DNA of 56,349 nt from Candidatus Natronoplasma sp. Its GTDB lineage: Archaea; Thermoplasmatota; Thermoplasmata; Halarchaeoplasmatales; Halarchaeoplasmataceae. The notes beneath the pieces were generated by a model. That model saw only the letters and a program-made list of their open reading frames with translations, was not told where the DNA came from and ran no database searches. This document shows, one piece after another, positions 1,004 to 34,167 of this stretch. Location of the stretch: contig JBMCEH010000001.1 in the NCBI GenBank assembly GCA_048620775.1, positions 1 through 56,349 on the forward strand. Direction: 5' to 3'. Numbering within the stretch: position 1 is the stretch's first letter; each line of letters starts with the position of its first letter. Both the position numbers and the translations under genes were made by a program.

Positions 1004-1660
1004 ATGATCAAAAAAGACTACAAGCAAAGACGTGATGACTTGATAGATAGTCTAATTAGAAAAGGATACATTGAAAGCGATACTGTTGAAAAAGCAATGA
1101 GGAAAGTTCCTCGACATGAGTTCGTGCCAGAAAGAGTGAAGGATAGAGCATATATAGATTCACCCCAACCTATCGGTCATGGACAAACCATTTCAGCCCC
1201 TCATATGGTCGCTATGATGGTAGAAAACCTAGACCTTAAAGAAGGACAGAAAGTACTCGAAATAGGAGGAGGTATGGGTTATCACGCTGCAGTCATCGCT
1301 GAGATTGTAGGGGAAGAAGGTAGAGTCTATTCTATAGAATATGTTTCCAGTCTAGCCAAGTCAGCTCAAAAAAAATTAAAAAACGTAGGATATCATACTG
1401 TAAAAATAATTCATGGTGACGGATCTTCCGGGTATGAAAAAGGCGCCCCCTACCATCGGATTTCCGTAGCATGTGGGGCACCTAATATACCTTCACCAAT
1501 GATAGATCAATTGATCCTCGAAGGAAAGATATTGGTCCCTGTCGGAAATAAATTTTTTCAAACCCTTATAAAGGCAATTAAGAAAAAAGAAAATAAGATC
1601 GAAAAAAAAGATTTGGGCGGGGTAAGGTTCGTCCCGCTAAAGGGAAAATACGGATTCTAG
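1004..1660 (+). CDS. pcm: protein-L-isoaspartate O-methyltransferase
   Basis: VPRHEFVPE, GHGQTISAPHMVA, and the SAM motif VLEIGGGMGYHAAV. Length 218 aa. Confidence 0.9.
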   Translation: MIKKDYKQRRDDLIDSLIRKGYIESDTVEKAMRKVPRHEFVPERVKDRAYIDSPQPIGHGQTISAPHMVAMMVENLDLKEGQKVLEIGGGMGYHAAVIAEIVGEEGRVYSIEYVSSLAKSAQKKLKNVGYHTVKIIHGDGSSGYEKGAPYHRISVACGAPNIPSPMIDQLILEGKILVPVGNKFFQTLIKAIKKKENKIEKKDLGGVRFVPLKGKYGF

Positions 1661-3171
1661 ACTATCTGTTTAAGCCGTATGTATGGCGAGCCTTTTTCTT
1701 TGTCCGTGACTATCGCGTAAAGTCCGGTCTTAGGTTTAACACCATAGATACACGGCGTTTTGTTTATACTGAGAAGAACGAAGTAGTTGTCCGCCATGTT
1801 CTTTATCTCCTTCGAGAGATTCAGCCCAGGTTTTAGTATCCCCATGCCGATGTCGTCAGAGTTCTTCGTATTGGCTACACCACTGAGTAGCTCTTGTAGA
1901 GCCATCTCACCACCACGCATGTATTCGAGAGTATCCAAAGCATGGTAATCTAATATCCCACGGTCCTCTTCGCCTCTCAATTCTTTCATACTTTGATTGT
2001 ATATCTTCCTGTACTGCTTTGGATTCTTACCTGCAAGGGCGAGCTTGTAAGGCTTATCTGTCTGCGAGGTTAGATGATCCACTATTCTAAACTTCTGGTT
2101 GAATAATTCTTCTGGTACGAAGCGTACAAGATCATCTCTGAGATTGTCCGGATGGGTTCCTCCTGAAAGAACGGCGATAACACCTCTCTTTTGAGCGATA
2201 AAATTGAGAAAAAGCGGTCTTATAACTGAAAAAAATTCTTCATTGCTGACATTTTCTTGTATCTCAAAAACATTGTAACTACCGGCATCAAAACCGCCTC
2301 CTAACAATTCATCTATATCTTCTATACCAGTACTATACTTGCATTCAGGAGCTTCTATTGGCTCCCATTCTTTTCCACCTGATATCTGAAGTTCATAGGG
2401 ATCGAAGCATTTGAATCGACCGCCTTTTAGAGACATTAGATAAGAAGGCTGATTCAACTCAACCGCTCTCAATTTTTTAAGCATGATCTCTCTTACATCC
2501 CTACCTTCAAGTTGATAACGTTTTAGTTGGGCCACACCATCCGCCAAATATTCTAATTCCGGCGCCGATTTTTTTTCAAGTATCATCACAAGGTTAGTGT
2601 TTGAGTTCTCAACTAAATCTTTCTGCAAGGTCATGACAAAGGTTTCCATATCCAAACCGTATTTGTGGGTAAGCCCCTCTATACTATCTAGGACCAGCAA
2701 AGATCTATCAGGAAGTATCTCGTCTATCCTATCATATATCCTGTTAAGACTCGGTATATCTCTATCCAACTGTTGAAGACGAGTCCTGTCCACCTCTTCT
2801 GGGGGTCCTTCTTTTCTTATAGTACTCAAGAATTCTCTAGCCCCTTCTATTTTTTTCTTTTCTTCCTCAGGGACGGCTTCATCCGAATCATTTTCTTCAT
2901 CATATATTGCCTGTAAAAATACCTTGCTGGCATCCATTATCTGTGAACGCATCTCTTTTTCTTCCAACCAGGGAAATTGATTATAAAGAGCTTCGTCCGA
3001 GACTCTAGTCGATAAGTAGAAGCTTTTATCTTGATCGGCCATCTCTTCTATTATTTGAAGGCCTAAAGTTGTTTTCCCTGTGCCTGAAGACCCTTCTAAA
3101 AATATTGAAGAGCCGCCTTCTTTTTCCAAAAATTTTTTGATTTCAGTAGGGATGCTTTTTATTATCTTCAT
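1657..3171 (-). CDS. tandem KaiC/RecA-superfamily ATPase: N-terminal domain with Walker A, C-terminal domain degenerate
   Basis: N-terminal domain has GSSGTGKTTLGLQI (Walker A) and LLVLDSIEGL (Walker B-like). The second half starts with the KaiC/RadA-like STGIEDIDELLGGGFDAGSYNVFE but has no P-loop. Confidence 0.6.
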   Translation of the reverse strand: MKIIKSIPTEIKKFLEKEGGSSIFLEGSSGTGKTTLGLQIIEEMADQDKSFYLSTRVSDEALYNQFPWLEEKEMRSQIMDASKVFLQAIYDEENDSDEAVPEEEKKKIEGAREFLSTIRKEGPPEEVDRTRLQQLDRDIPSLNRIYDRIDEILPDRSLLVLDSIEGLTHKYGLDMETFVMTLQKDLVENSNTNLVMILEKKSAPELEYLADGVAQLKRYQLEGRDVREIMLKKLRAVELNQPSYLMSLKGGRFKCFDPYELQISGGKEWEPIEAPECKYSTGIEDIDELLGGGFDAGSYNVFEIQENVSNEEFFSVIRPLFLNFIAQKRGVIAVLSGGTHPDNLRDDLVRFVPEELFNQKFRIVDHLTSQTDKPYKLALAGKNPKQYRKIYNQSMKELRGEEDRGILDYHALDTLEYMRGGEMALQELLSGVANTKNSDDIGMGILKPGLNLSKEIKNMADNYFVLLSINKTPCIYGVKPKTGLYAIVTDKEKGSPYIRLKQIV

Positions 3172-3174
3172 GTT

Positions 3175-3558
3175 TTATAACCCCCTTATTTTATAAGCTT
3201 CTTTAAGATCGTCGATTTTAGATATCATCTCTTCTATATCCTTCTTCAACTTCTTTTCTTTATCATGATCACCAAGTAAGGATAAAGCCATGTCATTATC
3301 CACCCACTTTATTAGTAGTACAGTGTCTTCAGAGTGTGCAACTATTAAATCGGGATTCTTTTTTTCGAATCCTGAGAATATCACCTCAGTAGCTCCTAAC
3401 ATAGTTGCAGAAAGAGTGCTAAAACTCTCATTCTCTTTTTCCTTTTTAAGATGAGATGCTATAGGTATACCGTTCTTAGAAGTCAGGGCGATCGCATCAA
3501 CTTCTTTGTTAGAGCCATATTCCTTAAAAATTTCTTCGATTTTATTCTTTGCTTTGAT
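3175..3558 (-). CDS. Roadblock/LC7 (MglB-like) family protein; start codon unresolved
   Basis: The track ORF (3175-3402, ATG) covers only the C-terminal half. The frame stays open up to 3597 and encodes ...NKEVDAIALTSKNGIPIASHLKKEKENESFSTLSAT before the ATG, which is the typical Roadblock N-terminal strand-strand-helix. There is no ATG/GTG/TTG in that extension. ATC at 3556-3558 lies 9 nt after an AAGGAG. The stop lies 3 nt upstream of the KaiC-like start. Confidence 0.55.
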   Translation of the reverse strand: MKAKNKIEEIFKEYGSNKEVDAIALTSKNGIPIASHLKKEKENESFSTLSATMLGATEVIFSGFEKKNPDLIVAHSEDTVLLIKWVDNDMALSLLGDHDKEKKLKKDIEEMISKIDDLKEAYKIRGL

Positions 3559-3618
3559 ATTAACACTCTCCTTGTGTATTATGTTGGTAATCTCCTTTTA
3601 GGGGTTAATTAACTTTTA

Positions 3619-3629
3619 CATATTTAAAC
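3619..3629 (-). promoter_or_regulatory. possible TATA box for the Roadblock/KaiC-like pair
   Basis: The minus strand reads GTTTAAATATG, about 25-30 nt upstream of the beginning of the open Roadblock frame (3597). Confidence 0.3.
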
Positions 3630-3662
3630 TTTCACAGTAATTTATTTTTTAATTTGCTTTTT

Positions 3663-3899
3663 TTATAATTCTTCAAAAACGTCAGTCGATCTTTTAGCCT
3701 TCATATCTTTTTTCATATCTGAGACCAAAGATTCATAATATGAAAGATGTTCTCTGATTATCTCTAGTTCATCTTTCAGTTCTTCTTCTCTTTCTTCTAA
3801 TTCTTTTATCCTCCCCTGTATCTCCCAATATTTTTGCATATCTCTCCTGATTTGACCCCTAAGATTTTTTATCTCATCTCTTTTTGCCATACCCTCCAC
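3663..3899 (-). CDS. small charged coiled-coil protein, hypothetical
   Basis: 78-aa ORF (GTG at 3899, or ATG at 3890) with heptad-like K/E/R-rich sequence. It abuts the stop of the upstream ORF. Confidence 0.4.
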   Translation of the reverse strand: MEGMAKRDEIKNLRGQIRRDMQKYWEIQGRIKELEEREEELKDELEIIREHLSYYESLVSDMKKDMKAKRSTDVFEEL

Positions 3900-4142
3900 C
3901 TACATTCTTTTCATCTCTTCTGACAGGTTTATCTGAATTTCACTGGTGTCTTTGCCACTCATGCCTATTGCACGTAGGGCGCTTTCACAATCACTGATCC
4001 TTTTTTTTGTTTTTTTGATTTCTCTTTTCAACTCTTTCTTTTTCTTTTTTACTCGTTTCAATTCGTCCAAAATATTTTCTTCTCTATTCTCCCATTTTTC
4101 CTTTTCTTCGATAGCCATCAATGCCTTTTCGATATCTACCAA
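3900..4142 (-). CDS. small charged coiled-coil protein, hypothetical
   Basis: 80-aa ORF, K/E-rich (KRVKKKKKELKREIKKTKKRI). It lies 17 nt downstream of csl4 on the same strand. Confidence 0.4.
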   Translation of the reverse strand: MVDIEKALMAIEEKEKWENREENILDELKRVKKKKKELKREIKKTKKRISDCESALRAIGMSGKDTSEIQINLSEEMKRM

Positions 4143-4159
4143 GACAAATCACCTATGGT

Positions 4160-4741
4160 TCATTTATCTTTTCTCTTCAATTTTATCTTACCATATGCCT
4201 GCGAGATTTTCCTATTCTCGTATATGTCACAGCGAGGGCAATACAATTTATTCTTTTTATATTTCATATCCTTTCTGCACTGCGAACAATACCCTTTGAC
4301 GATGCCGTATTCGCCTCCAATCGTTGACAATCTGAAAGTAGGTTCTGCCTGGATAACTTTAGCCCTCACTATATCCCCAACCAAATATTCATCCTCCAGC
4401 TCATCAGTATAATCGTCAGATACTTTTGAGATGTGTATCGAAGCCTCTATATCTTCCTTTACTTCTCTGGAAGATCCTTCAACCATATCTATGCTGATAA
4501 CCACCATGGAATTTTTCCTAGCTTCTACCACACCATAGACTATATCGCCCTCTTTTACTTCAACGATCGAGTTTATCGCTTCAACTTTTGCCTCTAGATC
4601 GTCCTCGTCATATTTTACAATACCAAAATGGGCTGAAAGGATCTTGTCTTCATCTTCATAGGTTCCTTCGCCCGAGAGCCATTCTTCTGCCATTCCGACT
4701 TCATCTCCTGGAAACACGAGTCTTTCCTTATTTTCCGCCAT
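4160..4741 (-). CDS. csl4: exosome complex RNA-binding subunit Csl4
   Basis: S1-like core (GDIVYGVV..., ASIHISKV, GDIVRAKV) followed by a C-terminal zinc ribbon CSQC...CPRC. The ATG at 4741 leaves a 1-nt gap to the upstream stop; the track's longer start is 4759. Confidence 0.75.
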   Translation of the reverse strand: MAENKERLVFPGDEVGMAEEWLSGEGTYEDEDKILSAHFGIVKYDEDDLEAKVEAINSIVEVKEGDIVYGVVEARKNSMVVISIDMVEGSSREVKEDIEASIHISKVSDDYTDELEDEYLVGDIVRAKVIQAEPTFRLSTIGGEYGIVKGYCSQCRKDMKYKKNKLYCPRCDIYENRKISQAYGKIKLKRKDK

Positions 4742-33537: not shown

Positions 33538-34167
33538 ATGGCTCTGAGATCGATGAAGATCTTACTTCTGGGAGACGGAGCTGTTGGGAAGACCTCCCTG
33601 GTAAGGAGATTCGTAGAACAAAAATTCGACGACCGATATATAGCAACGATAGGGGTCAATGTCAAAAAGAAAAGACTGCCCGAGCTAGGTATCAAGATGA
33701 TGCTCTGGGATATCTACGGGCAGAAGATGAACAAGAACCTTCACGCATCCCATTATTCGGGGGCGGATGGAGCTATAATAGTATACGATCTCACACGCTA
33801 CGATACTTTTTTGAGCCTGAATGGCTGGATAGACGAGGTGTTCTCAGTCACAGGTAAGATCCCTTTAGTTATTTTAGGAAATAAATTAGATCTCATCGAG
33901 AAGTATGAAAGTAGCAGATACGATGATTTTGACTCGTTCATAAAAAGAGAACAAAGTCATATTGTCGATTTTTATAAGAAAGTTTATGAAGAAGTACCCG
34001 ATTTTTCCATGGTATCTCCAGATGAACAATCTAGATGGGCTGAAGACAAAAGAGCTGAGATAGAATCCGAGTTCTCATGTTACTTAACTAGTGCAAAAAC
34101 TGGAGAGAATGTGGAAGAAGCTTTCCGTAAAATAGGAGAAATATTATTAGAGGAGGAGATAAAATGA
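33538..34167 (+). CDS. Ras/Rab-like small GTPase
   Basis: G1 GDGAVGKT, switch-I Thr in YIATIGV, G3 WDIYGQ, G4 GNKLDL, G5 TSAKTG. There is no C-terminal Cys. Confidence 0.85.
   Translation: MALRSMKILLLGDGAVGKTSLVRRFVEQKFDDRYIATIGVNVKKKRLPELGIKMMLWDIYGQKMNKNLHASHYSGADGAIIVYDLTRYDTFLSLNGWIDEVFSVTGKIPLVILGNKLDLIEKYESSRYDDFDSFIKREQSHIVDFYKKVYEEVPDFSMVSPDEQSRWAEDKRAEIESEFSCYLTSAKTGENVEEAFRKIGEILLEEEIK

Follow-up and report, generated by a model that had tools for sequence, protein, structure and literature searches.

A conserved Roadblock/LC7 and GvpD-family ATPase gene pair as a candidate ATP-dependent switch in Thermoplasmatota

Roadblock/LC7 proteins are platforms for small GTPases and for dynein. 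KaiC-like ATPases, for which few partners are known, are proposed signalling hubs of archaea. The two families meet in a gene pair of a stretch of 56,349 nucleotides (nt) of archaeal DNA, called here the window, which is contig C1 of a metagenome-assembled genome of 1.06 Mb with a completeness of 54%. The nearest relatives of this genome come from soda-lake and hypersaline sediments and belong to the Thermoplasmatota; among them are organisms named Candidatus Natronoplasma and Saliniplasma, whose ATPases are 64-77% identical to that of the window. The segment from 3633 to 1657 on the minus strand is predicted to be a conserved operon of two genes, under an archaeal promoter of its own, that encodes a Roadblock/LC7 protein and a two-domain ATPase of the GvpD family. 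The overall reading proposed below, to which a probability of about 0.55 is given, is that the two products form a complex acting as a partner-specific, ATP-dependent switch.

The pair is a novel variant of known regulatory pairs, the closest being GvpD-GvpE and MglA-MglB. In the first of these, described in Halobacterium salinarum and Haloferax mediterranei, GvpD reduces the amount of the activator GvpE, to which it binds, and a functional P-loop is needed for this (PMC4390858). The ATPase of the window aligns collinearly with GvpD along its whole length and has both Pfam GvpD domains. It shares with GvpD the P-loop, the sequence S-T-R-V at the position of the catalytic glutamate pair, the LEYxxDGV and KLR motifs, and a C-terminal domain devoid of P-loop. 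In both systems, the ATPase gene abuts that of a small partner. However, the partner here is a Roadblock protein encoded upstream, whereas GvpE is encoded downstream. The ATPase also differs from GvpD by the low identity (25%), the lack of a gas-vesicle context, the absence of a match to most of the bR2 model, and an additional charged insertion (residues 77-121).

MglA-MglB and the related Roadblock-GTPase modules (Myxococcus, Thermus, the Streptomyces conservons and the Asgard Rag-like systems) likewise set a Roadblock/LC7 protein, probably a dimeric platform, beside a P-loop nucleoside triphosphatase (NTPase). Their NTPase is a Ras-like GTPase, whereas that of the window has a RecA/KaiC fold of about 500 residues and stands in an operon without a GTPase. 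Cyanobacterial KaiC shares the tandem RecA-like domains. In structure, the predicted model is closest to full-length KaiC, and the profile alignment spans the CI/CII junction (E = 3.6e-10). Unlike in KaiC, the second domain has no P-loop and the catalytic glutamate pair is absent, with T-R at that place in the first domain. The two domains are oriented differently toward each other in the predicted model, which limits its whole-chain template modelling (TM) score against KaiC to 0.33-0.35. No kaiB or kaiA neighbour is seen at the locus, where no search with a kaiB or kaiA model was made. Finally, the inactivated KaiC (iKaiC) domains of archaeal signalling proteins, such as DUF835 and MEDS, resemble the C-terminal domain of the ATPase in having the KaiC fold without nucleotide binding. 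Here this domain follows an active GvpD-type domain in the same chain, and is not fused to sensor or receiver domains. A literature search, with incomplete coverage of the KaiC-hub literature, returned no description of a Roadblock-KaiC or Roadblock-GvpD pair.

The ATPase gene contains the following features.

1657-3171, minus strand: GvpD-family two-domain ATPase, 504 residues, ATG at 3171
2386-3171, minus strand: N-terminal RecA/KaiC-like domain, residues 1-262
3093-3067, minus strand: Walker A GSSGTGKTT, residues 27-35
3012-3001, minus strand: S-T-R-V motif, in place of the catalytic glutamate pair
2809-2943, minus strand: charged insertion, residues 77-121, modelled with low confidence
2703-2683, minus strand: Walker B LLVLDS, residues 157-163
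2475-2467, minus strand: K233-x-R235 arginine-finger motif
1660-2343, minus strand: C-terminal inactivated KaiC-like domain, residues 277-504, no P-loop

An earlier annotation made from the DNA alone (the sequence-only reading) had placed here a KaiC-type ATPase of 504 residues, starting 3 nt after a Roadblock gene and combining an active with a degenerate RecA-like domain. The gene is indeed found at 3171-1657, where the TAA stop of the Roadblock gene is followed by AAC and by the ATG of the ATPase. The product scores 65.8 bits with Pfam GvpD_P-loop (PF07088, cut-off 24), residues 11-230 covering model positions 1-187 of 189. It scores 47.7 bits with GvpD_bR2 (PF20440, cut-off 27.9), with only model positions 2-90 of 254 aligned; Halobacterium GvpD reaches 458 bits with this model. 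The score with Pfam KaiC is 40.7 bits. A tblastn search against plasmids matched residues 4-504 to H. salinarum gvpD on pNRC200, with 25.3% identity and E-values of about 1e-27 to 3e-27. The alignment takes in 99% of the length, and the matched gene lies in the classical gvpACNO / gvpDEFGHIJKLM cluster. It is poor in the arginine-rich basic regions on which repression by GvpD depends. The ATPases of relatives are named "gas vesicle protein GvpD P-loop domain-containing protein" at NCBI. On these matches, the ATPase is a predicted full-length homologue of GvpD within the KaiC/RecA superfamily, which upholds the KaiC-type assignment and narrows it to the GvpD family.

The AlphaFold2 model of the ATPase, built with 58 homologues, has a predicted local distance difference test (pLDDT) score of 82.7 and a predicted TM score of 0.79. 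When it was compared with the PDB by Foldseek, the top 50 matches were full-length KaiC throughout, with E = 1e-20 over about 520 aligned columns. The C-terminal part modelled alone (residues 271-504) reached a pLDDT of 90.6, and its best matches in the PDB were PH0284, SSO2452, KaiC CI and FlaH, with TM scores of 0.65-0.71 and E-values of about 1e-8. The second half of the protein begins with YSTGIEDIDELLGGGFDAGS and lacks a GK[ST] motif; a second Walker A motif occurs in none of 85 members of the GvpD family that were examined. The distinction drawn earlier between the two domains is therefore retained, with a P-loop in the first and a P-loop-less KaiC fold in the second.

KaiC-type ATPases have two catalytic glutamates after strand 2. 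In the alignment with SSO2452, these two residues are opposite T55-R56 of the ATPase, whereas the K-M-R arginine-finger motif is opposite K233-L-R235. The S-T-R-V motif that includes the replacement is common to the ATPase and Halobacterium GvpD. The residue opposite the second catalytic glutamate is arginine or lysine in 84 of 85 family members, and none has the pair E-E. The N-terminal domain thus appears to retain the elements of the nucleotide-binding and oligomeric site without the usual catalytic base. With Walker A, Walker B and KxR kept and arginine found for the glutamate pair, the signature fits a slow, switch-like NTPase better than a motor, and may be taken as a hint to that effect.

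The charged insertion is modelled with pLDDT values below 50 at residues 77-105 and 109-121, and Halobacterium GvpD is without most of it. Nevertheless, three of its residues (A111, F114 and L115) are invariant in 58 sequences, as is R129 just past it, and the nearby P124, V127 and L132 are conserved in at least 90% of them. The insertion may be a partner-binding segment.

The features of the Roadblock gene are given below.

3597-3175, minus strand: Roadblock open frame, 3597 being the first codon past a stop
3568-3573, minus strand: Shine-Dalgarno-like AAGGAG, 9 nt 5' of the proposed start
3175-3558, minus strand: Roadblock/LC7 gene, 127 residues, proposed ATC start at 3558-3556, TAA stop at 3177-3175

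The Roadblock/LC7 assignment of the sequence-only reading is supported by two lines of evidence. The product matches Pfam Robl_LC7 (PF03259) with 26.1-26.5 bits for a cut-off of 23, and the same match is already annotated on the orthologue at locus L087. A profile of ten orthologues matches the solved structures 9jue_D (E = 2.4e-9, positions 5-120) and 7f8m_A (E = 1.1e-7), as well as the dynein light chain roadblock and MglB.

The open frame was correctly recognized earlier, but its first codon at 3597 is not favoured as the start by the comparison of genomes. The frame has no ATG, GTG or TTG ahead of the ATG at 3402-3400, from which a product of only 75 residues would be made. The stretch between the proposed ATC and this first ATG appears to be under purifying selection, with a ratio of non-synonymous to synonymous changes (pN/pS) of 0.14-0.22 and nearly saturated synonymous sites. 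When the 30 loci of the archaeal family (L197-L225 among them) were aligned in frame, all were found to keep a GGAG-N9-start pattern. Seven genomes have ATG as the aligned start codon; the remainder have ATC, ATT or ATA. In six genomes, an in-frame TAG lies within the AGGAG motif, in the codon just before GAG, and there can therefore be no upstream translation start there. The ATG of the ATPase stands at the same 9-nt distance from the sequence AGGGGG. Translation of the Roadblock gene of the window most likely starts at the non-canonical ATC at 3558-3556, yielding 127 residues.

The Roadblock stop and the ATPase start share a reading frame across the junction (3171-3177, TAA AAC ATG), so that readthrough would fuse both proteins. 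This was dismissed as accidental, as the genes of relatives overlap out of frame.

Upstream of the Roadblock gene, the promoter region has two features.

3662-3598, minus strand: 65-nt spacer between the small open reading frame CC2 and the Roadblock gene, with GAAAGTTTAAATA at 3633-3621
3621-3633, minus strand: putative transcription factor B recognition element (BRE) and TATA element, GAAAG-TTTAAATA, serving the Roadblock-ATPase operon

A gap of this length with a TATA-like element had been noted in the sequence, and the element does lie inside the spacer. The combined BRE and TATA sequence GTGAAAGTTTAAATATGTAAA (3633-3621) is unchanged in five genomes with ATPases 79-99% identical, while the flanking spacer has diverged. 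It has a single exact copy in the window. Variants are seen in more distant relatives (L008, L018 and L089). From the usual archaeal spacing, transcription would start near 3598, at about 3600-3595.

Conservation of the pair was examined within the archaeal family and beyond. The ATPase was found in 36 of 40 family genomes and in all 23 of those of high quality. In 30 of the 30 family loci retrieved, the ATPase gene is directly preceded on its strand by the Roadblock gene, which often overlaps the ATPase start; a GvpD-like ATPase instead of a GTPase is therefore the neighbour of Roadblock throughout, as had been claimed for the window. Scanning metagenomes with the Roadblock profile gave 55 loci, 38 of which have the ATPase downstream at distances of -37 to +152 nt. 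In the other 17, the match is confined to Roadblock residues 5-84 (or 5-85) or 26-84, with 29-39% identity, and these loci probably belong to another Roadblock family. Such recurrence, in 30 of 30 family genomes and 38 metagenome loci, argues that the arrangement is not due to chance. Both the protein assignments of the sequence-only reading and the adjacency to which it drew attention are thus upheld.

A tree of 83 homologues unites all 16 Roadblock-linked ATPases in a single clade of 21 rows, with support of 98-99 in the Shimodaira-Hasegawa-like approximate likelihood ratio test (SH-aLRT). One subclade of five rows is without Roadblock, so that two changes account for the pattern, and a second tree rooted on GvpD gave the same picture. 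Across orthologous loci, no neighbour other than the Roadblock gene is conserved beyond the family. Outside it, the pair adjoins unrelated genes, for example a major facilitator superfamily (MFS) transporter gene, an NcsA-like gene, or ftsZ/secE/nusG.

A second, divergent pair is present in a 99%-complete relative of the same family (L127, G096:C6, 3090-5040, minus strand). It consists of a Roadblock protein of 129 residues and a GvpD-like ATPase of 522 residues, encoded with an overlap of 8 nt, and lies apart from the main Roadblock-linked clade, on a long branch of unresolved position.

Other arrangements were encountered. In one Thermoplasmata genome (L009, 4347-7500), no Roadblock gene accompanies the orthologous ATPase gene, which faces a second GvpD-like paralogue encoded on the other strand. 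Further Roadblock genes of the window genome, on contigs C11 and C25, do not adjoin KaiC-like genes. On contig C50 of the same genome (L002, 1378-2962, minus strand), two single-domain KaiC-like genes adjoin each other beside FEN1. One encodes 290 residues with a degenerate P-loop and the other 236 residues with an intact P-loop and a canonical LEE motif, as in a split version of the active-plus-inactive layout.

Partner genes also accompany other members of the GvpD family. In the gas-vesicle cluster of Halobacterium, gvpD is followed by gvpE. In two clades of Thermoplasmatota paralogues (7 and 11 rows), a winged-helix gene (Pfam HTH_20) is directly downstream on the same strand in 17 of 18 loci (L020, L026, L031-L036, L038, L041, L042, L044, L046, L048, L049, L052 and L058). 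These paralogous GvpD-like ATPases are 28-33% identical; the winged-helix gene encodes about 125 residues and is sometimes present in two copies, in a layout that mirrors gvpD-gvpE. As each clade is tied to one small partner gene, we infer by analogy that the mode shared in the family is the nucleotide-dependent binding of a cognate partner.

Applied to the window, this mode leads to the following proposal. The Roadblock protein of 127 residues would be a platform, probably dimeric, that forms a complex with the ATPase, the whole acting as an ATP-dependent switch. Whether the Roadblock dimer is bound would depend on the nucleotide state of the N-terminal domain. The ATPase, in analogy to the action of GvpD on GvpE, would set the amount of free, active Roadblock protein in the cell, and the latter would be the output adaptor toward a further target. 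The physical interaction, the oligomeric state and the output of the pair are all putative. The direction of control is a tentative part of the proposal, held at somewhat less than even odds: action of the ATPase on the Roadblock protein is favoured over the reverse because of the partner-binding mode shared by the GvpD family.

Several points weigh against the proposed switch. A Roadblock protein is not a transcription factor, so the analogy with GvpD-GvpE may not carry over. To our knowledge, the known partners of Roadblock proteins are GTPases or dynein, and not RecA-type ATPases. ATP hydrolysis is itself putative, the catalytic glutamate pair being missing. Sister clades have no Roadblock neighbour, and the genomes of the subclade that lost the adjacency hold only weak Roadblock matches, with 48-55 bits against 135; in that subclade, the ATPase apparently works without a Roadblock partner.

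The best surviving alternative, although an unlikely one, is that control runs in the other direction, the Roadblock dimer stimulating hydrolysis or nucleotide exchange on the glutamate-lacking N-terminal domain, as MglB does on MglA. Roadblock/MglB proteins are established platforms with GTPase-activating protein or guanine-nucleotide exchange factor (GAP/GEF) function for NTPases (PMC4316618, PMC11016934). The presence of T55-R56 in place of the catalytic glutamates would suit such a scheme. So would the order of the genes, with Roadblock encoded first, and the conserved weak AUH start, which would hold the level of the protein low, as for a regulator. However, the glutamate pair is lost family-wide, including in GvpD and in the winged-helix-linked clades, which have no Roadblock partner. 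The loss was therefore not shaped by Roadblock, which weakens the idea of a GAP. Moreover, we know of no Roadblock protein that acts on a RecA-fold ATPase.

It is also conceivable, but improbable, that both proteins are made together as parts of some larger assembly or pathway, such as a complex at the membrane or the cytoskeleton, in which neither regulates the other and adjacency means co-regulation only. Tight operon coupling speaks for co-expression and not for direct contact, and the invariant residues between positions 111 and 132, in or after the disordered insertion, could bind a third partner. Against this, no third gene is conserved beside the pair outside the family, and the pair was duplicated, or re-recruited, as a pair.

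There is very little to recommend the notion that the ATPase is a true GvpD repressing gas-vesicle formation: both Pfam GvpD models score above their cut-offs and the NCBI names of relatives agree, but identity to Halobacterium GvpD is 25%, bR2 is matched at positions 2-90 of 254 only, and gvpE and other gvp genes are absent nearby and from the window. A search for the GvpA family (PF00741) gave no match in the window genome and 20 relatives, its sensitivity being unproven since no control genome gave a match either. On the absence of gvp neighbours and of a GvpA-family match, in this search without positive control, a gas-vesicle role was rejected.

The genes around the operon are arranged as follows.

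6964-6578, minus strand: DUF6015 gene
6540-5365, minus strand: gene of a tetratricopeptide repeat (TPR) protein with a CxxC-rich tail
5372-4743, minus strand: METTL5-like methylase gene
4759-4160, minus strand: csl4
3900-4142, minus strand: CC1, helical open reading frame of 80 residues rich in lysine and glutamate, TTG start, 17 nt after csl4
3663-3899, minus strand: CC2, helical open reading frame of 75-78 residues rich in lysine and glutamate, GTG start (78 residues) or ATG at 3890
1004-1660, convergent to the ATPase gene: PIMT gene, overlapping the ATPase stop

The ATPase gene has only the Roadblock and PIMT genes as neighbours in the window. It overlaps the convergent PIMT gene at the stop codons (1657-1660), which leaves no space for an intergenic terminator. 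The minus-strand features of the sequence-only reading were all recovered in place, including the two abutting lysine- and glutamate-rich frames (4142-3900 and 3899-3663). Its suggestion that csl4 and the methylase link the module to RNA processing is hardly credible: the order DUF6015, (TPR protein), methylase, csl4, CC1, CC2, Roadblock, ATPase is held in the closest relatives, but a separate conserved promoter precedes the Roadblock gene, and outside the family the pair stands beside the unrelated genes cited above. As the synteny is confined to one family, a link through csl4 was rejected.

The two coiled-coil frames had also been counted as parts of the module. This does not stand, as the conserved promoter intervenes and CC1-CC2 occurs elsewhere without Roadblock or ATPase. 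Since CC1 lies 17 nt past csl4 and CC2 abuts CC1, both are probably on the csl4 transcript. CC1 matches no Pfam family at its cut-off, and the absence of detectable similarity between CC1 and CC2 means that they are not detectable paralogues. CC2 has the conserved motif ...SYY(E/D)SLxSDMKK... and is present in 12 of 12 family genomes, with weaker matches to frames of 74-95 residues in several other families of the class. CC2 recurs in these other families (L191-L194, about 3700-4200 in each). In six loci from them, CC2 is apart from csl4, Roadblock and ATPase, with CC1 detected just upstream in two. Three loci were inspected for what lies next to the cassette: in all three it directly precedes an MtnA/aIF-2B-like gene, and in two that gene has nop5 after it. 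CC1-CC2 is an independent small-gene cassette, separate from the Roadblock-ATPase module.

What had been counted as the other "Roadblock module" of the window consists of a Ras-family GTPase (33538-34167, 30 kb from the pair) and a DUF835 protein. An echo between this locus and the active-plus-degenerate ATPase had been perceived in the sequence-only reading. It is weakly supported: DUF835 has been described as an inactivated KaiC domain (PMC5847659), but hhalign detected no significant similarity between the ATPase and the DUF835 protein of the window (probability 0.08%).

The Roadblock-ATPase pair is probably an ATP-dependent regulatory switch in one branch of the Thermoplasmatota. Being conserved, it offers a concrete, testable partner for both the Roadblock and the KaiC-like families, and extends the logic of GvpD-GvpE past gas vesicles. 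The clade-specific partners (GvpE, winged-helix protein, Roadblock), together with the family-wide loss of the glutamate pair, suggest that GvpD-family proteins are nucleotide-gated binders rather than motors. A broader idea, which is speculative and has perhaps one chance in three, is that these proteins form a general archaeal class of partner-specific, ATP-gated "anti-factor" switches. In each clade, adjacency of the genes would commit the protein to a single small dimeric client, be it GvpE, a winged-helix regulator or, here and in the second paralogous pair, Roadblock, whose dosage would be set by the conserved non-AUG start (AUC, AUU or AUA). If this were true, the Roadblock clade would be the first case in which a Roadblock platform controls, or is under the control of, a RecA-fold ATPase instead of a GTPase or dynein.

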